DNA of 64,000 bases from an uncultured bacterium (GCA_963695095.1 CAVOFT010000001.1:1184001-1248000); one strand, 5' to 3'. Numbered from the stretch's first letter, positions 18,546 through 51,828 are shown. Notes: generated by a model not told the origin, from the letters alone. A program made the numbers and translations.

Positions 18546-20201
18546 ATGAAGGGCTTACGCTTTGCCCTCGCCGCGGCGCTGGCGGGTCTGCCCGCCCTGA
18601 GCGGAGCGGCGCCCGAGCTCGAGTGGGCCGCGACCCACGACGGCGGCGGCCTCTACGTGGACGAGGCCCGCCTTGCCCTCACGGACCCCGCGGGCAACCT
18701 GGTGCTGGCCGGCACCAGCCACGACGGCGTGGACGGCCTGGACCTGCTGGCCATGAAGCTGGCCAAGGACACGGGCGCCGTGCTCTGGGAGCGCCGCCAG
18801 CCCTCCTTCGACACCAACGACATGGCCGTGAGCGCGCTGAGCTGGGACGGGCTCGGCGACCTGCTCCTCGTCGGCTATGTCGTCGGCTGCGTGGGTTGAG
18901 GCCACGGCGACGACATCGTCGTCCTGAAGCTGGACGGCGAGACCGGAGAGGTTCTCTGGTTACAGCACTACGCTCCCGCAGGTGATCAGCACGAAACGGC
19001 CTACGCCGTGGCCGCGGCGCCGAACGGCGATGCCTTTGTCGTGGGGCGCGCCTACACGGCCGGCCGCATGGACGACGTCATCGCCCTGCGCCTGGCTGCC
19101 GCCGACGGCCACATCCTCTGGCTGAACCGCCTCGACGGCGGCAATGCCCGCAATGACCGCGGCTACGCCTGCGTGGCGGACGCCGCCGGTGACCTCGTCA
19201 TCACCGGCATCGCGGTGAACCCGGACGAATCGGCGGACTTCCTCACCCTCAAGCTGGCCGGCGAGGACGGCCAGCTGCACTGGACGCGGCGCGAGCCCGG
19301 CGCCGTCAACAACGAGACGCCGTCGGGCTGGCTGGGCCTGGCTGCGGAGGGCGGCGACGTCTTCATGGCCAACAAGACCTGGCAGACGGGCTACTCCTTC
19401 GACGCCGTGCTCGCGCGCTACGCGGGCGCTGACGGCGCCGTGCTCTGGAGCCGGCAATACGACAACGCCGGCGCGGCGGACGACCCGCGGCAGATGATCG
19501 TCGACGGCGCGGGCTGGCCCGTGGTGGCCGGCGTCTCGGCGGGCAACATGATGACGATGCGCGTGGACCCGACCAGCGGCGATCCCCTCTGGACCCGCTT
19601 CAAGGACGGGCCCATGGGCTGGTACGACCTCGCCAACTGCCTGGGCCTGGGCCCCGAGGGGCTGATCCTCGCCGCCGGCTTCATGGACGGCGGTGCGTCC
19701 ACCTGGGACGCGGCCGTGGTTGCCTACGCACCCGATACGGGCGATGAGGCCTGGACACTGGTCTGGGACGGCGCGGACAGCCTCACCGACGAGCTGCGCG
19801 CGCTCGCGCTCGCGCCCACGGGCGAGCTCTATGCCGTGGGCTACAGCTACGCGACCTCGACGGACATGGACATGCTCGCCCTGCAGTATCGCTTCGCGCC
19901 GACGGCGGTGGACTCGCCCTGGCAGCCGGCCGCGCTCGAGGCGCGCGCCTGGCCCAATCCCTTCCGCGAATCCGTGCAGCTTCGCCTCGCCCTGCCCGCC
20001 GCGGGCAGCTATCGCGCGGAGATCTTCGATGCGCAGGGCCGCCGCGTGCGGAGCCTCGACGGCGAGGCCGCGTCCGGCGAACTGAGCCTGCTGTGGGACG
20101 GCCGGGACGCGGAGGGGCGCGCGGCTCCGGCCGGTCTCTACTTCGTGCGCATCACGAGCGGCGGCGGCGAGTGGCGGGGGCGGCTGCTGCGCCTGCGCTA
20201 G
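18546..20201 (+). CDS. Secreted 8-blade beta-propeller (SBBP/PQQ-like repeats) with FlgD-Ig tail; in-frame TGA at 18897-18899 in a CxxU motif; candidate selenoprotein (551 aa)
   Basis: AAGGA RBS; signal peptide; ...LLLVGYVVGCVG*GHGDDIVVLKLDGETGEVLWLQHY... continues in frame into ORF 19008-20201; blade repeats G..D....(K/R)L...G..LW; PNPFR...AGLYFVRI tail. Confidence 0.8.
18897..18940 (+). promoter_or_regulatory. Candidate bacterial SECIS element
   Basis: UGA + 16 nt, then stem TCGTCGTCC(18916-18924), loop TGAAGCT, GGACGGCGA(18932-18940); loop 25 nt from the UGA with G at loop position 2. Confidence 0.55.
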
Positions 20202-20233
20202 TTGCCCGCTTCGGTCCGCTGAAGAACGATTCG

Positions 20234-20264
20234 ACGCCCCGGTGCTCTGGTCCGGGGCGTTTCT
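20234..20264 (+). terminator. Intrinsic terminator
   Basis: ACGCCCCGG...CCGGGGCGT followed by TTCT. Confidence 0.6.
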
Positions 20265-20356
20265 GTAGCGTGCGGCAGGAAGTGCGAGCGATCGGCAGCG
20301 GGTGTATACTCCCAAGCGTCGGGCAAGGGTGCTGCCGATGAGGGGAGGTCCTGGTG

Positions 20357-21949
20357 ATGGGCAAACGCTGCTTCGCAGCTGGGATAGTGCTTGCGATGCT
20401 GCCAAGCGGCTTTGCGAGCGGGGCAGAGGCCGCTCAGCTCCACGTCCCGCTCGAGTACCCCACGATCCAGGCAGCGGTCGATGCAGCGGCGCCGGGGGAC
20501 AGCGTCATGGTCTCACCTGGAATCTATGCCGCTCCGCCAGATTCAACACGGATCCTCCGGTGCATCGGAAAGGCCATTTACGTCATCGGCACGGCCGGTA
20601 GCGATTCCACCATCCTGTACGGGGCTGGCGGGGGAGGCCTATCCCTCATCGATGTGCCTCCTCCCGGGTTGAGCCTTCAGGGACTGACCATTGAAGAGTG
20701 CGCTGGTGGGATCTACTGCAGCGGCAGCGACCTCCTATGTTCGGAGATCCAGTGGCGCGGGAACTGCAGCGACCTTTACGCTGGCGGGCTGACGCTGATC
20801 AACTCCGTGGCTCGCATCACCGGTTCGGGTTTCGCAGACAACCGCAGCGGCTGGGATACCATTAGCGGTGGGTTTGGTGGAGCCCTCTATCTCTGGGGGG
20901 AGTCCTCCGCCTATCTCTCCGAGGTGGAGTTTTTGCGAAACGAGGCAAGCTTTGGAGGCGGTGCAATCGCCATGCTCCACGCGGATTCGCTCACCCTCGA
21001 TCGCGTGAGTTTCGAAGACAACAGCGGGCACTCCGGCGGCGCGCTGTACGTGGAAGCCAGCTCTGCCGAGGATTCGTCCAGTGTTCGGATACAGGAGTCG
21101 GTCTTCCATAGCAATTCGGCGGTGGGGGACGGCGGTGCAATCCGAGCTGCTGGCGGCCGACTGGAGCTTGAGGCTGTGGTCATCAGCGGAAACGAAGCGG
21201 GCCAGTATGGGGGCGGTATCGATTGCTCGCGGACTGCGTTGAGAATCGCCAGCTGCACGATCGCGCGCAACCAATCCACAGTGGGCGGCGCGGCCATTCA
21301 CGTCGACGACGGCGGCGAAGCGGGGAGCGTGAGCTTGGAGGTCTGCATCGTCGCCCTGAACACGGGCTCAAGCAGCCTCGAGTGGGCCGGCGACGGGGCA
21401 GCGCCCGTGCTCGCGTGCTGCGATGTCTTTGCCACGAACGGCGACCACTTCGGCGGCGCTTGGCCGGATGTCATCGGCCAGGACGGCAACTTCTCGGCGT
21501 ATCCCTACTTCTGCGGTACAGGGCCCTACGATGAGCAGAGCGGAGCGGACTTCAGCTACGAGCTTCAGACGAACTCGCCCTGCCTGCCGGGAGGCAATCC
21601 CTGCGGCATCTTGGTCGGTGCTTTCGGCGAGGGTTGTATCGCCAGCGTCGCAGGGGATTCGGATAGCGCCGACTGGCAGCCCGCCCGCGCGCTTCCGAAT
21701 CCCTTCGTGGAGACCACGCGGATTCGCGGCGCACTGCCGGGAGCGGGACCTGCGATGCTGTGCATCTACGACATCAGGGGGCGCAAGCTGCGCGAGCTGA
21801 AAGCTCTCGCGGGCGCCAACGAGTCCGCTGTCGAGTTTGCCTGGGACGGCCGCGACGGCGAGGGCCGACCCGCGCCGTGTGGCGTGTACCTGTACCGGAT
21901 TGAACGGGAAGGCCGGCGGCTCTCGGGGCGAGTCACCAGGCTGCGCTAA
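20357..21949 (+). CDS. Secreted right-handed beta-helix protein (Pmp-like GGA[I/L]/FxxN repeats) with FlgD-Ig tail
   Basis: VPLEYPTIQAAVDAA, repeated FxxN...GGA(I/L), YELQTNSPCLPG, PNPFV...GVYLYRI; GGAGG RBS. Confidence 0.85.
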   Translation: MGKRCFAAGIVLAMLPSGFASGAEAAQLHVPLEYPTIQAAVDAAAPGDSVMVSPGIYAAPPDSTRILRCIGKAIYVIGTAGSDSTILYGAGGGGLSLIDVPPPGLSLQGLTIEECAGGIYCSGSDLLCSEIQWRGNCSDLYAGGLTLINSVARITGSGFADNRSGWDTISGGFGGALYLWGESSAYLSEVEFLRNEASFGGGAIAMLHADSLTLDRVSFEDNSGHSGGALYVEASSAEDSSSVRIQESVFHSNSAVGDGGAIRAAGGRLELEAVVISGNEAGQYGGGIDCSRTALRIASCTIARNQSTVGGAAIHVDDGGEAGSVSLEVCIVALNTGSSSLEWAGDGAAPVLACCDVFATNGDHFGGAWPDVIGQDGNFSAYPYFCGTGPYDEQSGADFSYELQTNSPCLPGGNPCGILVGAFGEGCIASVAGDSDSADWQPARALPNPFVETTRIRGALPGAGPAMLCIYDIRGRKLRELKALAGANESAVEFAWDGRDGEGRPAPCGVYLYRIEREGRRLSGRVTRLR

Positions 21950-21967
21950 GGTGGACCACGCCAGCGC

Positions 21968-22537
21968 CTAGTTGCCCGCTGACACCAGCGCGTAGATGAC
22001 CGGCAGCAGGATGCCGATCAGCATCAGCACGCCGCCGCGGCCCATGAGGCCCTTCTTGCCGCGCACGAGGAAGATCCCCGAGATGGCCAGCACGATGACG
22101 ATGCCGGCATAGACATCGGCCACGCCCGTCCAGAGGCGCTTGCCCGTGTTCAAGTGCATGAAGTTCATCTCGAAGAGCCAGGGCCGCTTGGCCGCGCTGT
22201 CCCGCTGGTACTCGCCGGTGACGAGGTTCACCTCGATCTTGCCGCCGCTCTCGAGGAAGACGGCCAGGTAGTCCTGGCCCGAGCGCCAGGTGCTCTTCAC
22301 GGCCAGCTCGGGGTCCTGCGCGCGCAGGCGATCGAGCACCAGCGGCGTGACGAGCGCGGTCTCACCCGCCCCCGGGGGCGCCATCTGCTCGCGCACGCGC
22401 GTGCGCGCGTAGTTCGCGTCCCAGTGGTGGACGTGGTTCAGCGCCAGACCGCTGATCGCGTAGACGAGGGTCAGCCCCACCGCGAGGAAACCCAGCTCGC
22501 GGTGGAGCCAGAGGCATACCCGACGAAAAGTGCTCAT
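21968..22537 (-). CDS. PepSY-associated TM helix domain protein
   Basis: LWLHRELGFLAVGLTLVYAISGLALNH, NFMHLN, W...AD.Y....AISG. Confidence 0.8.
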   Translation of the reverse strand: MSTFRRVCLWLHRELGFLAVGLTLVYAISGLALNHVHHWDANYARTRVREQMAPPGAGETALVTPLVLDRLRAQDPELAVKSTWRSGQDYLAVFLESGGKIEVNLVTGEYQRDSAAKRPWLFEMNFMHLNTGKRLWTGVADVYAGIVIVLAISGIFLVRGKKGLMGRGGVLMLIGILLPVIYALVSAGN

Positions 22538-22547
22538 GCTGCTGCGG

Positions 22548-23090
22548 CTAGCCTTTGTGCTGGGGCTTCACGGCCTCCAGCGCGTTCGGCTCGGCCTTGG
22601 GATCCGCCTTGGGGGCGGCGGCCGCCTCGAGCGCCACGGCGCCCGTGCCCGAGAGCTGATAGAGCGTCATGCAGTCGGTCACGTGCTCGGGGTTGAACTC
22701 CTCGCCCTTCTTCTCGGCCTGCGCGCCGCAGTACTGCTTGGTCGTCTCGAGATCCAGCTTGTTGGCCGTCCAGACGCCCTCGGCGATGACAGTGGAGCCC
22801 AGGATGCTCGCCGGGAAGACGATGACGCCGTCCTCCACCTTGACCCGCAGGGTCTCGCCTTCCTTGTCCGAGCCGATGTTGATCCAGCAGCCGCGGTGCT
22901 CGCAGACGCCCACGGCGAGGCCCTCGACGCGCAGGGTCTGGCCGACATAGGCATCCGGGGTGGCCAGGAGCTGGCTCACGGGGATCGTCTCGCGGGAGCT
23001 GACACCCTTGCCGTAGACGGTCTCGCCGGCCAGGCTGAGGGCGGGAACGAGGAGGGCGAGGCAGAAAGCGACGATGATTCCCTTGCGCAT
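22548..23090 (-). CDS. Exported OB-fold protein (DUF4920-like)
   Basis: Signal peptide, YGKGV, LRVEGLAVGVCEHRGCWINI, RVKVEDGVIVFP, YQLSGTGAV. Confidence 0.75.
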   Translation of the reverse strand: MRKGIIVAFCLALLVPALSLAGETVYGKGVSSRETIPVSQLLATPDAYVGQTLRVEGLAVGVCEHRGCWINIGSDKEGETLRVKVEDGVIVFPASILGSTVIAEGVWTANKLDLETTKQYCGAQAEKKGEEFNPEHVTDCMTLYQLSGTGAVALEAAAAPKADPKAEPNALEAVKPQHKG

Positions 23091-23301
23091 GTGCGCGTCT
23101 CCTTGGGTGAGGGGGTGAGCCGCCAGGATAGCAGTAATCCATAACAAGGTGAAGGAGATCCTCAACCCGCGCAAGGGGCTGGGGTTCCCAATCCGGACCC
23201 CTTTCCCCTCAATATTCCCGCGGCGGCTGCCGATGAAGGCTCTGGCGGGGCGTCCCTGGGCCGGGGCGCCTCCGTCCGCGCCGCAGGCGGAAAGGGGGGC
23301 C

Positions 23302-25236
23302 ATGCCCAGTCTCCACGAGGATCGCCTGGCCGACCTGCTCGGCCAGCGCCGCCTGCTCAGCGAGGCCGAGATCCGGGGCCTGCTGGAGCGCAGTGCCGGC
23401 GCGGGGCGGGATTTCGAGGCGCAGCTGCTCAGCGAGGGCGGCTTCAGCCGTCGCCAGTTGCTGGAAATCCTCGAAAATCAGTACTTCTGCCCCTCGGCGG
23501 ACCTGCCCGATGAGAGCCCGGCGCCGGCCGCCCTCCTGCTCCTGCCCCGCGCCCTCGCCGAGCGCCACGACTGCCTGCCCGTGGACCTCCGCGGGGACGC
23601 CCTGCGGGTGGCCTTTGCCGATCCCGACGACAAGCCGGCCCGGGAGGCGGTCGCCCGGGCGACCGGCCGCGAGATCCTGCCCCTCGTCGCCCTGCGCACG
23701 GAGCTGGCCCGCTGCCGCCGCGACTGGTATGCGCAGCAGGAGGCGGGCCTGGCCTCGATCCGCCCCGCGGCGCCGGCGGCCTCTGCCGCGGCCCCCGCGC
23801 CGCCTCGCATCGAGCCCATTGCCGATCTGGCCGGACGCACGCCGGCCGAGCTCGTGGCGACCCTGCTCGGGGCCGCCGCGCGCCGCGGCGCCACGGATGT
23901 GCACATCGAGCAAGGCGACGAGGCGCTGGTCCTGCGGCTGCGCCTGGACGGCATCCTGCACACGGTGGCCCGCCTGCCGCGGGAGCAGGCGGCCGGCGTG
24001 ATCTCGCGCATCAAGATCCTCGCCAGCCTGGACATCGCCGAGCACCGCCTGCCCCAGGACGGCCGTTTCAGCACGCGCGAAGGCGACCGCCTCTTCGACC
24101 TGCGCGTGAGCGTGCTGCCCGCCCAGCACGGGGAAAAGATCGTGCTGCGCCTGCTCGAGAAGAAGCTCGAGCTGCTCGACCTGGAGCGGCTCCATCTACC
24201 GCCCGCCATTCGCGAGGCCTACCAGGCCGTGCTCACGAACCCCATGGGCTTCTACCTGGTCTCGGGACCCACCGGCAGCGGCAAGACGACGACGCTCTAC
24301 GCGACCCTGCAATCGCTGGATCGCGAGGTGCTCAACATCGCCACCCTGGAAGATCCCATCGAGTACTCGCTGCCCGGCATCACCCAGACCCAGGTGCAGG
24401 AGGAGATCGGCCTCACCTTCTCCGCTGGCCTGCGCTCGCTCTTGCGGCAGGATCCGGACGTCATCCTCGTCGGCGAGATGCGCGACCTGGAGACGGTGGA
24501 GGTGGCCTGCCGCGCCGCGCTGACGGGACACAAGGTGCTCAGCACCATCCACACCAACGATGCCTGCCAGGTGATCACCCGCCTTCTGGACATGGGCACG
24601 GCGCCGCACCTGATCGCGGCCACCCTGCGCGGCGTGCTCGCCCAGCGCCTCGTGCGCCGCGTCTGCCCCCAGTGCAACGAACGCTATGCGCCGAGCGAGG
24701 CCGAACGCGCCCTGCTCGGCTATCCCGAAGTCGAGGCTCTCGTGCGCGGCCGCGGCTGTGCGCACTGCGCCGGCACCGGCTACAAGGGCCGCATGGGCAT
24801 CTACGAGTACTTCCCAGTGGAGGAGGACATCCACCGGCTCATCCTCGATCGCGCCTCGCCCTATGCCATCCGCTACGCTGCCAAGCGCGCGGGCATGCTG
24901 CTCTTGGCCGACCATGCCAAGCGCGCCGTGCTGGCCGGCGAGACGACGGTGGCCGAGATCCAGCGCGTCGTGCTGGCCGAGGCGCCCCACGAGCAGCTCT
25001 GCCCGCACTGCCAGCGCGTCGTCAACGTGGAGTTCAGCGTCTGTCCCTACTGCCAGACCACGCTCAAGGAGACCTGCGGCGGCTGCGGCCGCCCGGTGGA
25101 GGCCAACTGGGAGAGCTGCCCCGCCTGCGGCGTCCACCTGGAGCGGGAATGGGAGAAGATCTACTGCCGGCACTGCCTGGCGCCGGTGCGCCCGGACTGG
25201 GAGAGCTGCCACTTCTGCGGAGGTGCCCTGCGATGA
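23302..25236 (+). CDS. GspE/PilB-family secretion ATPase with degenerate MshEN N-terminus and C-terminal zinc ribbons
   Basis: ATDVHIE, RLDG, RIKILASLDIAEHRLPQDGR, GPTGSGKTTTLY, TLEDPIEY, LRQDPDVILVGEMRD, TGHKVLSTIHTN, AQRLVRRVC; six extra CxxC motifs at the end. Confidence 0.92.
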   Translation: MPSLHEDRLADLLGQRRLLSEAEIRGLLERSAGAGRDFEAQLLSEGGFSRRQLLEILENQYFCPSADLPDESPAPAALLLLPRALAERHDCLPVDLRGDALRVAFADPDDKPAREAVARATGREILPLVALRTELARCRRDWYAQQEAGLASIRPAAPAASAAAPAPPRIEPIADLAGRTPAELVATLLGAAARRGATDVHIEQGDEALVLRLRLDGILHTVARLPREQAAGVISRIKILASLDIAEHRLPQDGRFSTREGDRLFDLRVSVLPAQHGEKIVLRLLEKKLELLDLERLHLPPAIREAYQAVLTNPMGFYLVSGPTGSGKTTTLYATLQSLDREVLNIATLEDPIEYSLPGITQTQVQEEIGLTFSAGLRSLLRQDPDVILVGEMRDLETVEVACRAALTGHKVLSTIHTNDACQVITRLLDMGTAPHLIAATLRGVLAQRLVRRVCPQCNERYAPSEAERALLGYPEVEALVRGRGCAHCAGTGYKGRMGIYEYFPVEEDIHRLILDRASPYAIRYAAKRAGMLLLADHAKRAVLAGETTVAEIQRVVLAEAPHEQLCPHCQRVVNVEFSVCPYCQTTLKETCGGCGRPVEANWESCPACGVHLEREWEKIYCRHCLAPVRPDWESCHFCGGALR

Positions 25237-26924
25237 ACAGCGGCAAGGACCTGATGCCCACCGGCATCGCGGGACTGGACCATCTGCTCGGCGGCGGCCT
25301 CGTGCGCGGCAACAGCTTGCTCGTCGAAGGGCCGCCCGGCAGCGGCAAGACCACCGTCGCCCTGCGCACGCTCTATGCCGGCGCTCAGCAGTTCGACGAG
25401 CCGGGCCTCATCCTCACCTTCGAGGAATTCCCGCGCCAGATCTACGAGGAGGCGGCGGGCTTCGGCATGGACCTGGCGGGGCTCGAGAAGCAGGGCAAGC
25501 TGCGCGTGGTGTGGACGCCGCCGGAGCGCATCCTGCAGGGCTTCGCCGGCAAGAGCGATCTCGTCGAGAACATCGTGCGCGAGCTGGGCGTGCGGCGCCT
25601 GGTCATCGACAGCATCACGCACTTCAAGCGGGTTGCCCACTCGGAGACCGAACTGCGCGAGACCCTGGCCGAGATCCTCAACTTCCTCAAGCTGCGCGGG
25701 ATCAACGCCATGCTCGTCAAGGAACTCGAGCGCATGGACGACGCCACCATCGCCTTCGAGGAGTACCTCGTCGACGCGAGCTTGCGCGTCTACAACGCGC
25801 GCTCGGGCCACGGGGGCGACAACGAGCGCTTCCTCGAGGTGCGCAAGACGCGCGGGCAGTCGCACATCTCGGGCCTGCATCCCTTCGAGCTGGGGGAGAC
25901 GGGCGTCGTCGTCTATCCGCGCCTGCGCCCCGAGGACGTGCGGCGTTCGCCGGCGCCGCAGGCCGTTCGCCGCCGCGTGCCGCTGGGCGTGGCCGGCCTG
26001 GACGCCATGCTCGAAGGCGGCTTCTGGACGGGCTCCTTCAACCTGGCCGCCGGCTATCAGGGCACGGGCAAGACGGTGCTCGCCTACCACTTCATCGACG
26101 AGGGCCTGCGCCGCGGCGAGAGCTGCCGCTCGGTGGTCTTCAACCGCCGGCCCGAGGACCTGCTGGGCGAGGCCCGGAGTCTGGGCTTCGACTGGGATGA
26201 AGCCCTGGCTTCCGGTCGCCTCTGCGTGGATGCCTTCACGCGCGGCGGCATGAGCATGGAGAAGCTGCTGGGGGCGCTGGATGTCGCCCTGCACGCGGGG
26301 CCGCCGCAGCGCTTCGTGCTCGAGTCCCTGGACGATCTCTTCGCCCTGCCCGGCCGCGACCGCCGGGTGGCCGACGGCGTGCAGGTGCTGCGCGCCCTGC
26401 TCGCCGACGTGGGCGCCACCGCGCTCCTGCTCCACCGCGCGCAGAGCCTCGCGGGCGACCTCATGGACAATGCCCGCGAGATCGGGGAGTTCACCGACGG
26501 CATCCTGCAGTTCTCCCTGGCCGAGAACGAGGGACGGCTCTGCCGCTTCCTCAGCGTGCGCAAGCACGCGGGCAGCAATCACGCCAAGGAGCTGCGCGAG
26601 CTGGAGATCGGTCCGCGCGGCATGGAGGTGGCCGACAGCGCCGGCCGCCACCGCGGCATCCTCACCGGCCAGCTCGAGCTGGCCCCGGCGGAGGCCGCGC
26701 CCGAGGTGCTGCCGCGCATCAAGGCCGTGCGGGACATCTTCCAGGATCTGCTCGCCGCCACCGGGCTGCCCGAGGACCTGCGCCGCCGCGTGATGGCCGC
26801 GCGGCGGGAGCTGGTGCTGGCCGATGTCGTGCTGCAGGAGCACTTCGGCGGCACGCATTTCGCGCAGATGGCAGTCCGCCGCCGCGAAGAGCCGGCGCCC
26901 GAGCCCGCGGGCGGCCACCGCTAG
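25233..26924 (+). CDS. KaiC-like tandem RecA-fold ATPase
   Basis: PTGIAGLDHLLGGG, GPPGSGKT, TFEE, RLVIDSIT, EEYLVD, LEVRKTRG; second domain LGVAGLDAMLEGG, GYQGTGKT, SVRKHAGSNH; ATGA overlap with the upstream ATPase. Confidence 0.88.
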   Translation: MNSGKDLMPTGIAGLDHLLGGGLVRGNSLLVEGPPGSGKTTVALRTLYAGAQQFDEPGLILTFEEFPRQIYEEAAGFGMDLAGLEKQGKLRVVWTPPERILQGFAGKSDLVENIVRELGVRRLVIDSITHFKRVAHSETELRETLAEILNFLKLRGINAMLVKELERMDDATIAFEEYLVDASLRVYNARSGHGGDNERFLEVRKTRGQSHISGLHPFELGETGVVVYPRLRPEDVRRSPAPQAVRRRVPLGVAGLDAMLEGGFWTGSFNLAAGYQGTGKTVLAYHFIDEGLRRGESCRSVVFNRRPEDLLGEARSLGFDWDEALASGRLCVDAFTRGGMSMEKLLGALDVALHAGPPQRFVLESLDDLFALPGRDRRVADGVQVLRALLADVGATALLLHRAQSLAGDLMDNAREIGEFTDGILQFSLAENEGRLCRFLSVRKHAGSNHAKELRELEIGPRGMEVADSAGRHRGILTGQLELAPAEAAPEVLPRIKAVRDIFQDLLAATGLPEDLRRRVMAARRELVLADVVLQEHFGGTHFAQMAVRRREEPAPEPAGGHR

Positions 26925-26968
26925 TCGAAGTCGGCGGGCCCCGGCGAGCGCCACTGCCCGGCCCGCTC

Positions 26969-28894: not shown

Positions 28895-28906
28895 CCTCGC
28901 CTCCGC

Positions 28907-29716: not shown

Positions 29717-29790
29717 GCCGATCCTCCCCTGCCGAGACCAGGGTAGAGGCTGGCCCCCTCCATCGCCAGTGCATTTTGGCCGCCCGCCGG

Positions 29791-29820
29791 TGTAACCTCG
29801 CGGGCGCTCGGGGGTCATAT
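29791..29820 (+). promoter_or_regulatory. Putative ECF sigma promoter (autoregulatory)
   Basis: TGTAACC...GGTCAT, resembling the ECF -35 AAC / -10 GTC pattern, about 40 nt upstream of the sigma gene. Confidence 0.5.
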
Positions 29821-29861
29821 CCTGCGGGCCGGGCGGGCCCGCTGCGGCGGCGAGGAGAATC

Positions 29862-30428
29862 GTGAGCGGAAGCTGGAGCAAGGCCTATCGCCGTCACGGG
29901 GCCGACATCCAGGCCTATCTCGCGCGGCGATTGCCCCGGCGCGAGGAGGCCGAGGATCTCTGCCAGGAGACCTTCCTGCGCGCCATGCGCGCCGAGGAGA
30001 AGCTGCGCGACCCCGGCCGCCTGCGCGCCTACCTCTTCAGCACGGCGCACAACCTGCTCGTCAACCACCTGCGCCGCCGGCGGCTCGTGCAGGCGGAGAG
30101 CGAGTTGGGCGAGGGCCTGAGCCTGGAGCTCGTCGCCGGCGCTCGCGGCGCCGAGGGTGAGTCGGGCCCGACGGCGGCGATCCGGGATCGGGAGCTCGCC
30201 CGCGCCCTCGCCGCGGCGCTGGCCGGTCTGCCCGCCGAGCAGCGGCTGGCCTTCACGCTCGGTCCGCTGGAGCGGCGGCCCTATGCGGAGATCGCCGCGA
30301 GCACGGGCTGGAGCTTGAGCAAGGTGAAGATCAACGTCCACCGGGCGCGCAAGTCGCTGATGGCGCGGCTGGAGGAACACGCGCCGGCGGCCCGCGCGGC
30401 CGGAGCGGACAAGGAGGCAAGGGCATGA
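29862..30428 (+). CDS. ECF RNA polymerase sigma factor
   Basis: AEDLCQETFLRA, LRAYLFSTAHNLLVNHLRRR, LPAEQRLAF, YAEIA...SKVKINVHRARKSL. Confidence 0.92.
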   Translation: MSGSWSKAYRRHGADIQAYLARRLPRREEAEDLCQETFLRAMRAEEKLRDPGRLRAYLFSTAHNLLVNHLRRRRLVQAESELGEGLSLELVAGARGAEGESGPTAAIRDRELARALAAALAGLPAEQRLAFTLGPLERRPYAEIAASTGWSLSKVKINVHRARKSLMARLEEHAPAARAAGADKEARA

Positions 30429-39553: not shown

Positions 39554-39568
39554 GCGCGAGCGCGAGGC

Positions 39569-41589: not shown

Positions 41590-41630
41590 TTGACGAGGGG
41601 AGGGGAATCGTCAATCATACGAACGTATGA
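41590..41630 (+). promoter_or_regulatory. Promoter and TetR operator palindrome overlapping the tetR start codon
   Basis: TTGACG at 41590; perfect inverted repeat TCATACG-AA-CGTATGA (41615-41630) containing the ATG. Confidence 0.65.
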
Positions 41631-42238
41631 ATCAAACCCAGAGCACTCGCGACACGATCCTGGACGAAGCCCGCCGGCTCTTCGCCAGCCGGGGCTTCGG
41701 CGGCGCCTCCGTGCGGGCGATCACCGGGGCCGCCGGCGTCAACCTGGGGGCGATCGGCTATCACTTCGGCTCCAAGGAGGCCCTCTACCACGCCGTCCTC
41801 GCGGGGATCTGGGCCGAGGCCGGCGAGGCCATCCAGTGCGAGGCCGGGCGCCCGGAGCCGCCCCTGGAGCGCATCGAGGGCATCCTGCGCCTCATCTTCG
41901 CCAATCTCGCCGGCCAGCCCGATCTCGCCGGCCTCGTGCTGCGCGAGCTGGCCGAGCCGCGGGGCGTCCCCGAGCCCCTGCGCGCGCAGGTGGCCCGGCT
42001 CGCCCTCACCCTGCGCGAGCTCCTCGTCGCCGGGCAGGCCGAGGGCAGCATCGTCGCCGGGGACGCCCAGCTGCTGATCCTGAGCATCGTCGCCCAGCCC
42101 TTTCACGTGCTTGCCCTGCGCAACAAGATGCGCGAGGTGCTGGGTCTGCCTGCGGACGACCCGGCCGTCTTCGCGCGGGTGGTGGACAATGCCGTGGCCT
42201 TCGTGCGCCGCGGCCTGAGCCCTGAGGGGAGGACCTGA
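41627..42238 (+). CDS. TetR/AcrR family regulator (CecR/YbiH-like)
   Basis: TRDTILDEARRLFASRGFGGASVRAITGAAGVNLGAIGYHFGSKEALY. Confidence 0.93.
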   Translation: MNQTQSTRDTILDEARRLFASRGFGGASVRAITGAAGVNLGAIGYHFGSKEALYHAVLAGIWAEAGEAIQCEAGRPEPPLERIEGILRLIFANLAGQPDLAGLVLRELAEPRGVPEPLRAQVARLALTLRELLVAGQAEGSIVAGDAQLLILSIVAQPFHVLALRNKMREVLGLPADDPAVFARVVDNAVAFVRRGLSPEGRT

Positions 42239-43572: not shown

Positions 43573-44563
43573 GCGACGCCGCCTCGCCATCGCAGTCCCC
43601 CTGCTCCTCCTGCTGGTCGCCCTCGCCGTTCTGCTCATCCGGCGCGGCGGCAAGGACGACGGGCTGCTCCTTGCCTCGGGCACCGTCGAGGCCACCGAGG
43701 CCCGACTGGGCTTCCAGGCCGTGGGCAGGCTCGAAAGCGTGGCCGTGCAGGAGGGGGAGGCCGTCCGCGCGGGCCAGGAGCTGGCCGCCCTCGATCGCCG
43801 GGAGCCGCGCGCGCGCCTGGAGGCCGCCCAGGCCCAGGCGGCTGCCGCGCGGGCGCTGCTGGCCGAGCTCGAAGCCGGCGCCCGACCGGAGGAACTGGCC
43901 CAGGCGCAGGCTGCGCTGGCCGCCGCCCGCGATCGCGAAGCGGATGCCCGCCGCGACGCCGAGCGCGTGGCCCGGCTCCATGCCGGCGGCGCGGTCAGCC
44001 AGGAGGCCGACGACAAGGCGCGCCTGGCCGTGGACCTCGCGGCGAGCCAGGCCGAACAGGCCGCGCAGCAGCTGGCCTTGCTCAGAGCCGGCGCGCGACC
44101 CGAGCGCCTGGCCGCCCAGCGCGCCCTGGTCGAGCAGGCGGAGGCGGCGGCCCGCGCCCTCGAGGCCGGCCTGGCGACGATGGCGATCCAGGCTCCCATC
44201 GCCGGGGTCGTCACGCTGCGCCACCGCGAGCCCGGCGAGATCGTCGCCCTGGGCTCGCCGGTGATCAGCCTCATGGACCCGCGCGATCGCTGGGTGCGCA
44301 TCTTCGTGCCCGAGACGCGCGTGGGCGCCCTGCGCCTGGGCCAGCGGGCCGAGATCCGCGGCGACAGCTTCCCCGACCGCCGCTACGAGGGCGAGGTGGT
44401 GATGATCGCCAGCGAGGCCGAGTTCACGCCGCGCAGCGTGCAGACCACCGAGGAGCGCGTGAAGCTGGTATACGCGGTGAAGGTGCGCATCCTGGGCGAC
44501 GAGACGGGCGACCTCAAGCCCGGCATGCCGGCCGATCTGCGCCTGGACCTGGAGCCCCGATGA
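43565..44563 (+). CDS. HlyD family membrane fusion protein (YbhG-like)
   Basis: ASGTVEATE, APIAGVV, IASEAEFTPRSVQTTEERVKLVYAVKV, LKPGMPAD. Confidence 0.92.
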   Translation: MTKRRRLAIAVPLLLLLVALAVLLIRRGGKDDGLLLASGTVEATEARLGFQAVGRLESVAVQEGEAVRAGQELAALDRREPRARLEAAQAQAAAARALLAELEAGARPEELAQAQAALAAARDREADARRDAERVARLHAGGAVSQEADDKARLAVDLAASQAEQAAQQLALLRAGARPERLAAQRALVEQAEAAARALEAGLATMAIQAPIAGVVTLRHREPGEIVALGSPVISLMDPRDRWVRIFVPETRVGALRLGQRAEIRGDSFPDRRYEGEVVMIASEAEFTPRSVQTTEERVKLVYAVKVRILGDETGDLKPGMPADLRLDLEPR

Positions 44564-45482
44564 GCGAGTTCGCGCTCGCGGCCCGGGGCCTGGCGCGCCG
44601 CTTCGGCGATCTCATCGCCGTGGCCGGGCTCGACTTCACGGTGGGCAGGGGCGAGCTCTTCGGCATCGTCGGCCCGGACGGCGCCGGCAAGACGACGACC
44701 CTGCGCATGCTGGCCGGCGTGCTCAGGCCCAGCGCGGGCGATGCCGAGATCCTCGGTCTGTCCGTGCGCCGCGAGCCCGAGCGCCTGAAGGCCCGCATCG
44801 CCTACATGTCGCAGCGCTTCGGCCTCTACGGCGACCTCACCGTGCGCGAGAACCTGGACTTCTACGCCGACCTCTACGGCGTGCCGAGCGCCGAGCGGCC
44901 GGCGCGCCTGGCGCGGCTCTACGAGTTCTCGGGCCTCGGGCCCTTCCAGGGCCGACTGGCCGGCCAGCTCTCGGGCGGCATGAAGCAGAAGCTCGGCCTC
45001 TCCTGCGCGCTGGTGCACGAGCCGGAGCTGCTCCTGCTCGATGAGCCCACCTTCGGCGTCGATCCCGTCTCGCGGCGGGACCTCTGGCTCATCGTCCACG
45101 AGATGGTGGCCCGAGGAGTCACGGTGATCGTCAGCACGGCCTACCTCGACGAGGCCGAGCGCTGCGACCGGGTGGCCCTGCTCCACCAGGGGCGGCTGCT
45201 CGCGCTCGACACGCCGGCGGCGCTGAAGGCCGCTCTGCCCGGTGCGCTCTTCGCATTGCGTGGAGACGGGCTGCGCGAAGCGCGGCGCCTGCTCGCCGAG
45301 GAGCCGCTGGTGCGGGGCGTGGCCGTCTTCGGCGACACCCTGCACCTGAGCCTGGACTCGCCGGCGGCCGCCGGGCCGCTGGGCGCCCGCCTGGCGGCGG
45401 CCGGCCTGGCCGAGTTCAGCCTCGCGCCCCTTGCGCCCAGTCTCGAGGACGTCTTCATCGCTCGGGTCCGGGAGGTCACGCC

Positions 45483-45486
<4 letters not shown>
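44560..45486 (+). CDS. ABC transporter ATP-binding protein (YbhF N-half-like)
   Basis: GPDGAGKTT, LSGGMKQKL, LLLDEPT. Confidence 0.93.
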
Positions 45487-46430
<944 letters not shown>

Positions 46431-46444
46431 GCGAGGAGTCGGTC

Positions 46445-47551
46445 ATGCAACTGCGTCGATTGATCGCCGTCGCCCGCAAGGAGGCCATCCAGCTCCGCCG
46501 CGACACGCGCAGCCTGATCCTGGCCTTCCTGCTGCCGGTGCTGCTGCTGATCCTCTTCGGCTACGCGATCACCTGGGACGTGGACGACATTCCCCTGGCC
46601 GTCGTCGATCTGGACCACAGCCAGGCGAGCCGCGGCCTCGTCGAGGCCTTCACCGCCTCCGGTCAGTTCCGCGCCGTGGCCTGGCCCGCTCGCGCTGCCG
46701 ATGCCGAGCCCCTGCTGGCCCGCGGCAAGGTGCGCATGGCCCTCGTCGTGCCGCGCGGCTTCGCGGCGGCGAGCGCCGCCGAGCGCGTGCCGCTGCAGGC
46801 CATCGTCGACGGCAGCGACGCCAACACGGCCGAGATCGCCATCAACTACGCGCAGGCGGCCGTGGCCGCCCACGCCCTGCGCGCGGCCGGCGGGCAGGCG
46901 CGGCCGCCCATCCTCGCCGTCAGCCGCGTCTGGTACAACGAGGAGCTGTCCAGCCGCAACATGATCGTGCCCGGCCTGATCGCCGTGATCATGATGATCA
47001 TCGCCGCCATGCTCACCGCGCTCACCATCGCCCGCGAGTGGGAACGCGGCACGATGGAGCAGCTGGCGGCCACGCCCGTCACCCGGGGCGAGATCGTGCT
47101 CGGCAAGCTGCTGCCCTATCTCGCCATCGGCCTCGCCGACGTGCTGGTGATCAGCCTGCTCGGCATCGCCCTCTTCGGCGTGCCCCTGCGCGGCAGCGTG
47201 CCGCTGCTGGCCATGCTGTCGACCGCGTTCCTCACCGGCGCGCTGGGGCTGGGCCTCTTCATCTCGGCGGTGACGCGCTCGCAGCTGCTCGCCACCCAGG
47301 TCTCGATGCTGACCAGCTTCCTGCCGGCGCTCTTGCTCTCCGGCTTCATGTACGCGATCAGCGTGATGCCCCTTCCCTTGCAAGCGATCTCCTTCCTCAT
47401 CCCCGCCCGCTACTTCCTCGTCGTCACGCGAGGCATCTTCCTCAAGGGCGTGGGCGTGGAGGTGCTCTACGTGCAGGGCCTCCTGATGATCGCTTTCGCC
47501 CTGCTCGGCGTGTTCGCCGCGATGCGGGCCTTCAAGAAGGAGCTGGGATGA
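46445..47551 (+). CDS. ABC-2 type permease (YbhS-like)
   Basis: KEAIQLRRD, WYNEEL, AREWERGTMEQL, LLSGF. Confidence 0.92.
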   Translation: MQLRRLIAVARKEAIQLRRDTRSLILAFLLPVLLLILFGYAITWDVDDIPLAVVDLDHSQASRGLVEAFTASGQFRAVAWPARAADAEPLLARGKVRMALVVPRGFAAASAAERVPLQAIVDGSDANTAEIAINYAQAAVAAHALRAAGGQARPPILAVSRVWYNEELSSRNMIVPGLIAVIMMIIAAMLTALTIAREWERGTMEQLAATPVTRGEIVLGKLLPYLAIGLADVLVISLLGIALFGVPLRGSVPLLAMLSTAFLTGALGLGLFISAVTRSQLLATQVSMLTSFLPALLLSGFMYAISVMPLPLQAISFLIPARYFLVVTRGIFLKGVGVEVLYVQGLLMIAFALLGVFAAMRAFKKELG

Positions 47552-48696
47552 GCCGCGCTTCCCTGCCGAGTCCGCGGCGAGTGCTGGAGCTGCTGCGCAA
47601 GGAGTTCATCCAGATCCGGCGCGATCCACGGCTCCTGCGCATCATCTTCGTGGCGCCGGTGATCCAGCTCGTCATCTTCGGCTACGCGGTGTCCACCGAC
47701 GTGCGCAACACCCGGCTCTTCCTCGTCGACCTGGATCAGAGCCAGGCCTCGCGCGAGCTGGTGACGGCCTTCACGGCCTCGGGCTACTTCCGCCTGAGCG
47801 GCAGCTCATCGCGGCCCGCGGACCTGGCCGCGGCTCTGGCCGCGGGCAGCGCCGTGCTCGGCCTCGAGATCCCGCGCGGCTATGGGGCGGATCTGGCGGT
47901 GGGCGAGGCCAGCGTGCAGCTTCTGCTGGACGGCACGAACTCGAACATCGCCACCATCGCCCGCGGCTACGCCGAGCGCATCGTGCAGAGCCACGGGCTG
48001 CGCGCGGCGCAGGACGGCGGGCAGGGCGCGCCGCTGGCGGCCGGCGCCGGCGCCACCGTCGAACTGCGCGAGCGCGCCTGGTACAACCCGGCGCTGGAGA
48101 GTCGCAACTACAACGTGCCGGCGGTGGTGGGGACCATCATGATGCTGATCTCGCTGCTGCTCACGTCCCTGGCCATCGTGCGCGAGCGCGAGATCGGCAC
48201 GCTCGAGCAGCTCCTGGTCAGCCCGCTGCGGCCCGGGGAGATCATCGCCGGCAAGACCCTGCCCTTCGCGATCATCGCCATGCTCGATCTCGTCGCCATC
48301 ACGGCGCTGGCCCTGCTCTGGTTCCGCGTGCCCTTCGCCGGCAGCTTCCCGCTGCTGGTGCTGGGCAGCCTGCTCTACCTGCTGGCCGCCCTCGGCCTGG
48401 GCCTGCTCGTCTCCACGGTCTCCAGCACGCAGCAGGAGGCCTTCCTCACCACCTTCCTGATCTTCATGCCGGTCATCCTGCTCTCGGGCTTCATGTTCCC
48501 GGTGAGCAGCATGCCCGCGCTCTTTCGCTGGCTCACCCTGCTCAACCCCATGCGCCACTACCTGGAGATCGTGCGGGGCATCTTCCTCAAAGGCAGCGGC
48601 CTCGGCCTGCTCTGGCCGCAGTTCCTGGCTCTGGCGGGGATGGGACTCGGTGTGCTCTGGCTGGCCGCGCGGCGCTTCCAGCGCTTGACCGGCTAG
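47548..48696 (+). CDS. ABC-2 type permease (YbhR-like)
   Basis: KEFIQIRRDP, WYNPALES, VREREIGTLEQL, LLSGFMFP. Confidence 0.92.
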   Translation: MSRASLPSPRRVLELLRKEFIQIRRDPRLLRIIFVAPVIQLVIFGYAVSTDVRNTRLFLVDLDQSQASRELVTAFTASGYFRLSGSSSRPADLAAALAAGSAVLGLEIPRGYGADLAVGEASVQLLLDGTNSNIATIARGYAERIVQSHGLRAAQDGGQGAPLAAGAGATVELRERAWYNPALESRNYNVPAVVGTIMMLISLLLTSLAIVREREIGTLEQLLVSPLRPGEIIAGKTLPFAIIAMLDLVAITALALLWFRVPFAGSFPLLVLGSLLYLLAALGLGLLVSTVSSTQQEAFLTTFLIFMPVILLSGFMFPVSSMPALFRWLTLLNPMRHYLEIVRGIFLKGSGLGLLWPQFLALAGMGLGVLWLAARRFQRLTG

Positions 48697-49346
48697 CGTG
48701 TCTGCCGCGCCTGCGCGCGGCGGCGCGCCCTCCAGCCCTCGATGGCCATGGGCACGAGCGAAAGCGCGATGATGGCGAGCACGGCGATCGAGAAGTTCTC
48801 CTTCACCACCTGCAGGCCGCCGAAGTAGTAGCCGAGCAGGGTGAAGAGCAGCACCCAGAAGCAGCCGCCGCCCACGCTGAAGGCGAGGAAGCGCAGGTAG
48901 CGCATGCGGCCAATGCCGGCCACGAAGGGCGCGAAGGTGCGCACGATGGGCACGAAGCGGGCGAGCACGAGGGTCTTGCCGCCATGGCGTTCGTAGAAGG
49001 CATGCGTGCGGTCCAGGTACTCCTGCTTGAAGAAGCGGCCGCCGCCCCGGAACACGCGCGGGCCCAGGTGGCGGCCGATCGTGTAGTTCAGGTTGTCGCC
49101 GATGACCGCAGCGGCAATGAGCAGGGGAATCAGGACCCGGATCTCCAGCGCTCCCGCGCCCGCGAGGGCGCCCGCGGCAAAGAGCAGGGAGTCGCCGGGC
49201 AGGAAGGGCGTGACGACGAGGCCCGTCTCCATGAAGACGATGCCGAAGAGGATGCCGTAGACCCAGCCGCCGTAGCTCTGCACGAGCTCGAGCAGGTGCT
49301 TGTCCACGTGGAGAATGAAGGAGAAGAGATCGGTCAGCCAGTCCAT
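48693..49346 (-). CDS. dedA: DedA family membrane protein
   Basis: FMETGLVVTPFLPGDSLLFAAG, LARFVPIVRTFAPFVAG. Confidence 0.93.
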   Translation of the reverse strand: MDWLTDLFSFILHVDKHLLELVQSYGGWVYGILFGIVFMETGLVVTPFLPGDSLLFAAGALAGAGALEIRVLIPLLIAAAVIGDNLNYTIGRHLGPRVFRGGGRFFKQEYLDRTHAFYERHGGKTLVLARFVPIVRTFAPFVAGIGRMRYLRFLAFSVGGGCFWVLLFTLLGYYFGGLQVVKENFSIAVLAIIALSLVPMAIEGWRARRRAQARQTR

Positions 49347-49522
49347 AGGCGGGTCAATATACAGAAGGCGTCGGTCGCGGCCAAGGGCCCGCAGGCCGGA
49401 ATCGCCTCCCGTGCCCCGCGTTCGCCGAGTCAGGGCTTGGCGGCGAGCTCGCGATCGTGCATGCTGGGTCGCTGCGGGCCCCGCCGCGCACTCCCCACCG
49501 ACCCCGCTCAGGAGATCGACCC

Positions 49523-51205
49523 ATGGCCGAGAAGTTCATCTTTCACATGTACGGCGTCAGCATGGCCTATGGGCCCAAGCAGGTGCTGAAGGAGATCAAC
49601 CTCAGCTTCTTCCCGGGCGCGAAGATCGGCATCGTCGGCGAGAACGGCTCGGGCAAGAGCACCGTGCTGCGCATCATGGCGGGCCTGGAGCCGAACTTCC
49701 AGGGCCACGCCGAGCTCACGCCCGGCTTTCGCGCCGGCATGGTGGCCCAGGAGCCCGAGCTCGACGACGCGCTCACCGTGCGCGCGACCATCGAGTCCGC
49801 CTTCGGGGCGATCAAGGCGCTGATGGCCGAGTACGACGCCGTTGCCGCCAGCATGGGCGAGGATCTCGACGAGGCCGCGATGGCCAAGGCCATGGACCGC
49901 ATGAGTGCCCTGCAAGACCGCATCGAGGCCGCTGACGGCTGGAACCTGGATCAGAAGCTGGATGTCGCCAGCGACGCCCTCTGCCTGCCCGAGGACGAGC
50001 GGCTGGTGGGCACCCTCTCGGGCGGCGAACGGCGGCGCGTGGCCCTCTGCAAGATCTTGCTCGAGCAGCCTGACTTGCTGCTGCTCGACGAGCCCACCAA
50101 TCACCTCGACGCCGAGACCGTGAACTGGCTCGAGGAGCAGCTGCGCGTCTATCCCGGCACGGTGATCGTGGTCACGCACGACCGCTACTTCCTCGACAAC
50201 GTCACCGGCTGGATCCTCGAACTGGAGGGCGGCCGCGGCATCCCCTGGCAGGGCAATTACAGCTCCTGGCTGGAGCAGAAGCTGGCCAAGCTGGCCGAAG
50301 GCGAGCGGGGGGACTCCGCGCGCGGCCGCGCCCTGCGGCGGGAGCTGGACTGGATCCGCATGAGCCGCGGCGACCGCCGGGCGCTGGCCCAGGCGCGCCT
50401 GCGCGAGTACGAGCAGCTCGTCGCCCGCGAGCGGTCCGAGCAGCGGGGCGAGGCCGAGGCGGCCATCCGCATCGCGCCGGGGCCGGAGCTGGGCGCGCAG
50501 GTGGTGGAGTTCAAGGACGTGGCCTTCGGCTACGCGGGGCGCACACTCTTCGAGCAGCTCAGCTTCAGCGTGCCGCGCGGGGCGGTGATCGGCCTGGTCG
50601 GTCCCAACGGCGCGGGCAAGACGAGCCTGTTCAAGCTGATCGCCGGCGGGCTGAAGCCGCAGGCGGGCAGCGTGAGCGTGGGCGCCTCGGTGAAACTGGT
50701 CCACGGCGACCAGGAGCGCAGCGGTCTCGACGCGAACCGCACGCTCATCGAGGACGTGGGGGGCGGCGAGGAGGAGATCGCGATCGGCAGCGAGAAGATC
50801 CCGATTCGCAAGTACCTGGCCCAGTTCGGCTTCAAGGGGGCCTCGCAGCAGAAGCGGACGGGCGAGTTCTCCGGCGGCGAGCGCAACCGCTGCCACCTGG
50901 CCAAGCTGCTCAAGGCGGGCGGGAACCTGATCCTGCTCGACGAGCCGACCAACGACCTCGATGTGAACACTCTACGCCTGCTCGAGGAGGCCATCCTCGA
51001 GTTCTCCGGCTGCGTGCTGGCGATCAGCCACGATCGCTTCTTCCTCGATCGCATCTGCACGCACACGCTCGTCTTCGAGGGCGAGGGCAAGGTGCGCTTC
51101 TACGAGGGCAACTTCTCGGCCTACGAGGAGTGGCGGCAGCGCGAACTGGGCGACCGGCTCTTCGCGAATCGCCGCAACCGCTATCGGACGCTGGTGAAGG
51201 GCTAG
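49523..51205 (+). CDS. ettA: Energy-dependent translational throttle ABC-F protein EttA
   Basis: INLSFFPGAKIGIVGENGSGKST, LSGGERRRVAL, GRGIPWQGNYSSWLEQK, SGGERNR; no TM domains. Confidence 0.9.
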   Translation: MAEKFIFHMYGVSMAYGPKQVLKEINLSFFPGAKIGIVGENGSGKSTVLRIMAGLEPNFQGHAELTPGFRAGMVAQEPELDDALTVRATIESAFGAIKALMAEYDAVAASMGEDLDEAAMAKAMDRMSALQDRIEAADGWNLDQKLDVASDALCLPEDERLVGTLSGGERRRVALCKILLEQPDLLLLDEPTNHLDAETVNWLEEQLRVYPGTVIVVTHDRYFLDNVTGWILELEGGRGIPWQGNYSSWLEQKLAKLAEGERGDSARGRALRRELDWIRMSRGDRRALAQARLREYEQLVARERSEQRGEAEAAIRIAPGPELGAQVVEFKDVAFGYAGRTLFEQLSFSVPRGAVIGLVGPNGAGKTSLFKLIAGGLKPQAGSVSVGASVKLVHGDQERSGLDANRTLIEDVGGGEEEIAIGSEKIPIRKYLAQFGFKGASQQKRTGEFSGGERNRCHLAKLLKAGGNLILLDEPTNDLDVNTLRLLEEAILEFSGCVLAISHDRFFLDRICTHTLVFEGEGKVRFYEGNFSAYEEWRQRELGDRLFANRRNRYRTLVKG

Positions 51206-51231
51206 AAGACGGCGATGGCGCTGCCGGTCCC

Positions 51232-51828
51232 TCAGCGATAGAGCGCCTTCACGGAGCCTAGATGCGCTTGCCGAACGGGTGTGGCGGGATTGAGGCAGAG
51301 GCGGTCGGCCAGATTGAAGAGCCCGTCCAAGATCTCGACGCGCGCGATGTAGTCGCCGGCGTCCAGTTGGAGCGGGCCGCTCCCGGCGGCCCAGACGAGG
51401 GGATCGGGTCAGCCCAGACCGGCGCCGTAGTAGCTGATCTCGCGGCTCTGCGCCGCGCCGCCGGCCGCGGGGCGGAGGCTGAGTTCGAGCACGTTGAGCA
51501 TGCCGAACTGGCTCTTGAAGCTGGCCGAGACCTCGTAGCTGCCCGGCTCGGGCAGCGCGATGAGGATCTCGATCCACTCGCCGAGCTGATCGAAGCCCGC
51601 GACGGCGTAGCCGCCCCCGGCGTTGTTGCACTCCGCGTAGGGATTGATGTCCGCCCCGCCGAGGTCCAGGAAGTCGTAGAGCGGCGGTCCCCACTCGAAG
51701 TAAAGCGGCAGGACCTCATCGGCCGCCGCGCCTGCGGCGCAGCATAGCAGCGCCGACACCAGCAGTACGTGGCCGAGCGCCCCGACCCGGCTCCATCCGC
51801 TCGGCAGCATTCCAGTTCGCAGTAACAT
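51232..51828 (-). CDS. Secreted CBM6/CBM35-like protein with C-terminal xxGSVKALYR tail; in-frame TGA at 51409-51411; candidate selenoprotein (198 aa)
   Basis: Signal peptide...GEWIEILIALPEPGSYEV...ISYYGAGLG*PDPLVWAAGSGPLQLDAGDYIARVEILDGLFNLADRLCLNPATPVRQAHLGSVKALYR*. Confidence 0.72.
51374..51411 (-). promoter_or_regulatory. Candidate bacterial SECIS element
   Basis: UGA + 16 nt, then perfect stem GGGCCGC, loop CGGGA, GCGGCCC; loop 23 nt from the UGA with G at loop position 2. Confidence 0.55.

Follow-up and report, generated by a model that had tools for sequence, protein, structure and literature searches.

Two genes for predicted exported proteins, a beta-propeller and a beta-sandwich, with in-frame UGA codons that almost certainly encode selenocysteine in an uncultured bacterium

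A list published in 2022 comprises 87 families of prokaryotic selenoproteins, including DUF1573, cytochrome c554, GOS_C, peroxiredoxin (Prx) and SelD (PMC9312934, Table 1). The two genes described here come from a 64,000-nucleotide stretch of an uncultured bacterium (GCA_963695095.1 CAVOFT010000001.1:1184001-1248000; this whole stretch is called the window, and positions are counted from its first nucleotide), and each contains an internal TGA codon which, judged by sequence comparison, almost certainly encodes selenocysteine (Sec, U). Gene 1 (18546..20201, plus strand) is predicted to encode an exported beta-propeller with a C-terminal domain of the type IX secretion system (T9SS), and gene 2 (51232..51828, minus strand) an exported beta-sandwich similar to the carbohydrate-binding modules CBM6 and CBM35. 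The Omp28-related selenoprotein (NF045500; "Hypothetical protein GOS_C", with the UxxC motif, in PMC9312934, Table 1) resembles both in being exported, in having an in-frame UGA and in being split by gene callers. It is, however, thioredoxin-like, whereas gene 1 combines a propeller with CxxU and gene 2 a sandwich with GxGU, and neither of them matches NF045500.

The CxxU selenoproteins (SelW-like, AhpD-like, GrdA and HdrA; PMC9312934, Table 1) share with gene 1 a Cys located two or three residues before Sec, which by analogy suggests that this arrangement in gene 1 is a selenenylsulfide redox pair. In contrast to gene 1, they are cytoplasmic, with thioredoxin-like or other folds, while the predicted product of gene 1 is an exported propeller with His-Gly-Asp-Asp after the motif and with no Cys form found in the genomes and proteins searched (see below). 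The fold of gene 1 is that of the PQQ-like, BamB-like and CylK-type propellers, none of which are selenoproteins and in which no counterpart of the gene 1 Sec loop was identified. Gene 2 shares the beta-sandwich fold of CBM6/CBM35 modules (PDB 2cdp and 2w47) and differs from them in being a stand-alone secreted protein rather than a glycosidase module, with a Cys + Sec/Cys pair and a tail characteristic of the lineage. The DUF1573/OS_HP2 and cytochrome c554 selenoproteins (PMC9312934, Table 1) are unrelated to both genes in sequence and fold. Since these two families are already catalogued and have signal-peptide-like N-termini in this genome, there are precedents for Sec proteins outside the cytoplasm.

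No propeller, FG-GAP or CBM-like family is present among the 87 families of PMC9312934, Table 1. In passage searches of the main texts of PMC13188914, PMC13326102 and PMC12013277 neither a propeller nor secretion is mentioned; the same holds for FG-GAP, PQQ, carbohydrate and sorting in PMC13188914, and for carbohydrate in PMC12013277. A literature search returned nothing relevant that joins selenocysteine with T9SS, selenoproteins with Eisenbacteria, or a bacterial selenoprotein UGA with a beta-propeller. Genes 1 and 2 almost certainly represent two uncatalogued selenoprotein families in a selenoproteome predicted to be mostly exported.

When TGA is read as U, gene 1 forms a single frame of 551 codons, with the sole in-frame TGA at 18897-18899 (U118) in the context VGCVG-U-GHGDD. 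Gene callers break it into two pieces (18546-18899 and 19008-20201). A six-frame search of 41 related genomes yielded 16 full-length members of the family, the window copy included, from 15 genomes and with 35-81% identity; all 16 have exactly one TGA, in the same alignment column. Two distant paralogues have no TGA and lack the entire Sec loop. In the phylum as a whole, 69 of 69 matches (E ≤1e-86; 68 of 208 genomes) hold exactly one TGA, and the only stop-free match in the 208 genomes is the loop-less paralogue. The matches are restricted to two taxonomic families (10 of 11 and 57 of 91 genomes). The Sec codon lies in a conserved loop, G-C-V-G-U-G-H-G-D-D (residues 114-123; 18885..18914, plus strand), whose consensus in the 16 aligned sequences, GC(x)xGU[GD][HQ]GDD, is near-invariant: G114, C115, U118, G121, D122 and D123 do not vary, and G117 hardly does. 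The spacing between Cys and Sec in the family is either CxxU or CxxxU.

Gene 2, likewise read with TGA as U, is a single 198-codon frame that ends in HLGSVKALYR and is truncated by gene callers at 51409. Its Sec codon (U140; 51409..51411, minus strand) belongs to a G-x-G-U motif in the context GAGLG-U-PDP. The corresponding alignment column shows alternation of TGA and Cys, with TGA in all eight aligned orthologues and Cys in three aligned paralogues; G135, G137 and U140 are invariant, and Cys67 (51628..51630, minus strand), a candidate partner of Sec140, occupies a nearly invariant column of the 11-sequence alignment. A profile search gave 69 matches in 53 of the 208 phylum genomes, of which 61 contain TGA and eight no stop, and TGA-bearing and stop-free members are often found in tandem. 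Upstream of gene 2 lies a T9SS-tailed gene that is free of in-frame TGA.

In public databases gene 1 is present only as C-terminal pieces of 373-412 residues (including one with the name "T9SS type A sorting domain-containing protein") and gene 2 only as N-terminal pieces of 133-139 residues, in line with the statement of the initial annotation that gene callers would split such genes. All public copies seen are truncated fragments, and the full proteins are hidden from database users and from searches based on Cys homologues.

The genome (3.64 Mb in 2 contigs; G+C content of the window 70%) encodes the components expected for Sec insertion: a tRNA-Sec (71.9 bits, cut-off 47) and, above the curated cut-offs, selA (429.8 bits), selB (362 bits when summed) and selD, the last with one in-frame TGA of its own. 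The selA gene was found in 41 of the 41 related genomes, which leaves none without it for a correlation of the split genes with selABC. The stop is TGA in 387 of 857 confident open reading frames (ORFs), TAG in 421 and TAA in 49. TAG is the commonest stop in this genome, although the G+C content is 70%.

In E. coli fdhF and in the consensus bacterial selenocysteine insertion sequence (SECIS), a hairpin is located 10-17 nt after the UGA and has a G in the first two positions of the apical loop, an arrangement to which both genes are similar. These distances and the loop rule reportedly go back to Zhang and Gladyshev (2005). Hairpin 1 of gene 1 (18916..18940, plus strand; RNA positions 20-44 in RNAfold) has a 9-bp stem and the loop UGAAGCU, and begins 17 nt after the UGA; in 15 distinct orthologue sequences 87% of the alignment cells are paired, with three compensatory pairs. 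Unlike fdhF and the consensus, gene 1 has also a second hairpin (18943..18959, plus strand), ~44 nt after the UGA, with a 7-bp stem and an invariant GGU loop. Here 100% of the cells are paired, with one compensatory change (A-U to C-G), and the hairpin is spelled with GGA and GTT, which are rare here (2.9% of Gly and 1.8% of Val codons, respectively), GTT being kept in 15 of 16 orthologues. Hairpin 2 may be a distal, second or bipartite SECIS element. The hairpin of gene 2 (51373..51393, minus strand) has an 8-bp stem and the loop CGGGA and starts 16 nt after the UGA; RNAfold places its start at 17 nt (RNA positions 20-38), the start at 16 nt being possible through a U-G pair. A hairpin is present in the region 3' of the UGA in 8/8 orthologues. 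The loops at other Sec sites of the genome are GGUC, GUC, GGC and CGUGA.

These results agree with the description given in the initial annotation, namely two unrelated exported proteins with an internal UGA preceded by Gly (U118 and U140), a hairpin at about +17 with G at loop position 2 in both (starts at 16-17 nt), a C-terminal tail downstream of the UGA (a T9SS/FlgD domain in gene 1 and HLGSVKALYR in gene 2), and a UGA that is not globally reassigned, as follows from the number of ORFs that end in it.

The significance of the hairpins was assessed with a positional rule (perfect stem of at least 5 bp, start between +8 and +20, G within the first two positions of the loop, and an energy of -11 kcal/mol or lower). 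Seven of ten Sec sites comply with it (binomial P ~4e-9), compared with 3.2% of random coding positions (n = 3000) and 6.5% of the 387 TGA terminators. The expectation that split genes should be commoner at TGA than at the other stops was borne out only in part. A codon-usage scan for stops that are flanked on either side by coding signal, the stricter first version of which missed genes 1 and 2, gave 58 of 1049 for TGA, 156 of 1426 for TAG and 22 of 122 for TAA, contrary to the expectation; the scan is not informative, because same-frame neighbouring genes dominate it. Two other comparisons are in its favor. Where an in-genome paralogue spans the stop, Cys is found opposite to it in 4/10 TGA and in 0/22 TAG/TAA cases, and among the stops with two-sided coding signal the hairpin rule selects 9/58 for TGA and 4/178 for the others (TAG 4/156, TAA 0/22). 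Eight of the nine hairpin-positive TGA cases are selenoprotein genes. The ninth (C1:3334989, in genome coordinates) was rejected, as it consists of two genes, one for a response regulator and, after it, one for an ATPase.

At least 11 selenoprotein genes are present in the genome, nine of them with signal-peptide-like N-termini as judged by eye, and the initial proposal of an unannotated set of exported selenoproteins is thereby supported. Besides genes 1 and 2, nine came to light when the codon-usage scan was combined with the alignment of paralogues and with searches in five relatives. One encodes an FG-GAP protein that has a T9SS C-terminal domain and the sequence GG-U-C; four of five full-length orthologue matches carry one TGA and the fifth is a Cys form, and U lies in the same loop in the three TGA forms aligned. 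An Omp28-like thioredoxin-fold protein with a signal peptide and a T9SS C-terminal domain (C1:2985511-2987574; TW-U-VYC) has TGA in three of five full-length orthologue matches. In a second thioredoxin-like gene (C1:2963139-2964384; TG-U-PAC) the frame is lost ~75 residues after U; an ORF with a T9SS C-terminal domain goes on in another frame. The cause of this break is either a frameshift, decay into a pseudogene or an error of the assembly. Matches in relatives retain the TGA of a DUF1573/OS_HP2 selenoprotein (1/1), a multihaem lipoprotein (2/2) and a cytochrome c554-type protein (6/6); the first and the last of these have signal-peptide-like N-termini, as does a thioredoxin-tetratricopeptide repeat (TPR) selenoprotein. 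The remaining two are a peroxiredoxin and SelD.

Gly directly precedes U in eight of the 11 genes, against a background of 9.7% (P ~7e-6, calculated for 7/10 and possibly biased, as the candidates were picked partly by eye). The Gly codon varies, and the preference is for this reason one at the protein level.

The AlphaFold2 model of gene 1 (mean predicted local distance difference test, pLDDT, 84.8) shows a beta-propeller followed by the C-terminal sorting domain. Its Foldseek matches are CylK (7fh6, E 2e-15), BamB and tetrathionate hydrolase (6l8a); PF13360 does not match gene 1 at E ≤0.1 and is precomputed on several truncated relatives. The sorting domain, of the T9SS type A / FlgD immunoglobulin-like type, covers residues 469-542 (19950..20171, plus strand) and is recognized by PF13860 (42.7 bits, cut-off 27) and TIGR04183 (29 bits, cut-off 23). 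The gene 1 tail is plausibly a working T9SS signal, because PorU (438.4 bits, cut-off 420) and SprA (532.5 bits, cut-off 200) are encoded in the genome above their cut-offs. At the other end, residues with a basic n-region, a hydrophobic core and an A-x-A type end form a predicted signal peptide (MKGLRFALAAALAGLPALSGA / AP; 18546..18608, plus strand). This N-terminal architecture is common to all aligned orthologues, and A21 is invariant.

The model of gene 2 has a core with pLDDT above 90 and a disordered tail. Foldseek finds CBM6/CBM35 modules (E ~1e-6, template modeling (TM) score up to 0.76, normalized to the target); at E ≤0.1 no Pfam or NCBIfam family, CBM_6 and CBM_35 included, matches the sequence, and the resemblance is one of fold alone. 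The predicted signal peptide is ~36 residues long (...LLVSALLCCAAGAAA / DEV; 51721..51828, minus strand), and the orthologues have the same N-terminal architecture. The T9SS type A domain is absent from gene 2. The protein ends with the tail HLGSVKALYR (51235..51264, minus strand), which corresponds to the lineage's tag [ST]W[GS]x[IV]KxLY-COOH in a degenerate form with L in place of W; the orthologues carry [ST]W[GS]x[IVL]K..Y.

Taken together, it is very likely that both are genuine selenoprotein genes in which UGA is read as Sec with the help of SelB and the hairpin, and that the full-length products are exported. SelB with Sec-tRNA(Sec) would be drawn to the UGA by the mRNA hairpin (the bacterial SECIS) 16-17 nt downstream, and Sec would be inserted. 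The full-length precursors would then leave the cytoplasm through the Sec translocon by means of their N-terminal signal peptides, and the T9SS-type C-terminal domain would bring the gene 1 protein over the outer membrane to the cell surface. In this protein one loop of a propeller blade is predicted to present the near-invariant Cys-x-x-Sec-x-His-Gly-Asp-Asp motif, which most likely serves either as a selenenylsulfide centre with redox activity or as a binding site for a metal. Gene 2 would be a small stand-alone CBM6/35-like sandwich whose Sec is replaced by Cys in some paralogues, and Sec140 probably pairs with the conserved Cys67.

The conservation of the UGA, the alternation of Sec with Cys, the hairpins, the Sec machinery, the folds, the sorting domain and the T9SS genes are observed; Sec insertion, export, the chemistry of the sites and the Cys67-Sec140 pairing are inferred. 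Several points weigh against this explanation. For gene 1 a Cys form was found neither in the 208 phylum genomes nor among 17 protein-database hits, and to our knowledge most accepted selenoprotein families have a Cys-containing homologue. The TGA column was checked for 16 gene 1 members, while for the remaining 53 of the 69 matches what is established is that one TGA lies inside the match; this is also the situation of most gene 2 profile matches, and of the eight stop-free gene 2 homologues Cys at the Sec position is confirmed for three. As for the hairpins, G at loop position 2 of hairpin 1 is present in only 12 of the 16 gene 1 orthologues (counted from the alignment), the register of the gene 2 hairpin varies by subgroup with a weak consensus fold (-2.9 kcal/mol), and the single-sequence folding energies are no better than those of shuffled sequences (z = -1.44 for gene 1 and -0.31 for gene 2). 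On the side of export, recognition of the signal peptides relied on inspection by eye and a crude rule rather than on a trained predictor, PF18962 scores 19.6 bits on gene 1 (cut-off 27), and the PorV-like protein adjoining PorU reaches 112 bits (cut-off 250).

The initial annotation had interpreted the two genes as a shared design, a selenium-gated secretome, in which the UGA between the signal peptide and the sorting tail is a regulatory switch of surface display and the identity of the inserted residue is secondary. Without Sec insertion the products of both genes would indeed lose the C-terminal domain or tail; the arrangement is common to gene 1, the FG-GAP protein, the Omp28-like thioredoxin-fold protein and gene 2, and the UGA is located within the N-terminal quarter of the large proteins. 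This placement is, however, uninformative, because any internal codon of an exported protein sits between its signal peptide and its tail. TGA separates the signal peptide from the remainder in only three of 152 T9SS-tailed ORFs (collected with a hidden Markov model built from an alignment, as a regular expression missed gene 1) and in one of ~33 ORFs with the SWG-type tail, which is gene 2 itself. Five more selenoproteins with predicted signal peptides have no recognized tail (DUF1573-like, the two cytochromes, thioredoxin-TPR and the frame-broken thioredoxin-like gene, C1:2963424). Moreover, U belongs to near-invariant motifs and alternates with Cys in homologues, as is typical of a functional residue and not of a gate. 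In the models both proteins would be cut short within a folded domain (in blade 2 of the gene 1 propeller, and ahead of the final three strands of the gene 2 sandwich), and the short products would be misfolded rather than alternative isoforms. From the uninformative placement, the conserved Cys-type motifs and the truncation in mid-domain it follows that the two are better described as ordinary Sec-dependent exported proteins than as a regulatory design, and the switch is improbable. The selenium dependence of display follows trivially, since every selenoprotein suffers the same loss without selenium. The single TAG-split candidate with a T9SS C-terminal domain turned out to consist of two genes, the first of which encodes a PorV-like outer-membrane protein.

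One may ask whether UGA is instead read through as Trp, Cys or Gly, delivered by a near-cognate or suppressor tRNA. This is more doubtful still than a switch. The Sec system is complete in 41/41 relatives, the SECIS-like hairpins lie at the canonical distance, and the column in paralogues contains Cys and never Trp or Gly; UGA also functions as the terminator of nearly as many confident ORFs as TAG does. That the TGAs are real stops, with the loci being pseudogenes, sequencing errors or pairs of adjacent genes, as gene callers and public databases treat them and as the frequent same-frame neighbours (156 TAG and 22 TAA in the scan) would allow, is hardly credible, given that the TGA column persists at protein identities of 35-81% and is flanked on either side by conserved sequence, that no start codon or signal peptide follows the stop, that a single predicted fold spans the TGA in both proteins, and that paralogues have Cys at the TGA position.

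With both genes read as selenoprotein genes, a more extended picture can be drawn, which we regard as possible though rather less likely than its alternatives. The lineage would perform extracytoplasmic selenium chemistry with a selenoproteome that is for the most part exported and partly surface cargo of the T9SS, and gene 1 would be an obligate-Sec surface enzyme with a catalytic or metal site and with a two-hairpin SECIS, whose GGU loop ~44 nt from the UGA would bind SelB. The missing Cys version of gene 1 is a rare situation and argues that selenium is indispensable to its chemistry. The propeller and the CBM-like sandwich are folds not linked to selenium so far and would extend the list of selenoproteins. 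With nine of 11 selenoproteins carrying signal peptides, Sec would be placed mainly in the oxidizing extracytoplasmic space, which bears on the question of why Sec is used over Cys. For the annotation of genomes of this phylum, a TGA that is followed at 10-17 nt by a GGUC-type hairpin should not be taken for a stop.

The tag to which the gene 2 tail is related, T-x-x-x-x-x-[ST]W[GS]x[IV]KxLY-COOH, is found in a window ORF (16223-16786, plus strand) and in ~33 ORFs genome-wide. In 35 of 41 six-frame genome matches the motif ends no more than three residues from the stop; 26 of the 33 tag-bearing ORFs have a signal-peptide-like start by a crude rule, and in 16 a Cys lies 10-20 residues before the C-terminus. 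The two tag-bearing examples tested match no Pfam or NCBIfam model. The tag may be an undescribed sorting or anchoring signal.

In three genomes the gene for the FG-GAP selenoprotein has a member of the gene 2 family, with either Cys or Sec, no more than ~2 kb away. The pairs are C1:2602281-2603543 and 2605711-2606274 in this genome (G000), C1:28472-29719 and 29736-30308 in genome G002, and C2:168767-169987 and 172088-172642 in genome G004. This hints at a functional link between the FG-GAP selenoprotein and the gene 2 family.

The surroundings of gene 1 were considered as a clue to function and set aside: the rhodanese, PepSY_TM-like and DUF4920 genes are syntenic in the closest relatives only, and no inference was drawn from them. 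The rhodanese-like gene (17069-17638, minus strand) is divergent from gene 1; among the relatives examined its synteny is limited to the three closest, and a rhodanese is found beside gene 1 in 3 of 14 loci (with only ~1.5 kb of flank per locus). The gene 2 locus adjoins a tRNA gene (53533-53606, minus strand), followed by the hydrogenase maturation genes hypF, hypC and hypD within 53866-57557 (plus strand). Elsewhere in the genome, near-identical repeats (99%) at C1 ~1.75-1.86 Mb (minus-strand index) have an in-frame TAG between two coding stretches, and are probably copies of an insertion sequence.

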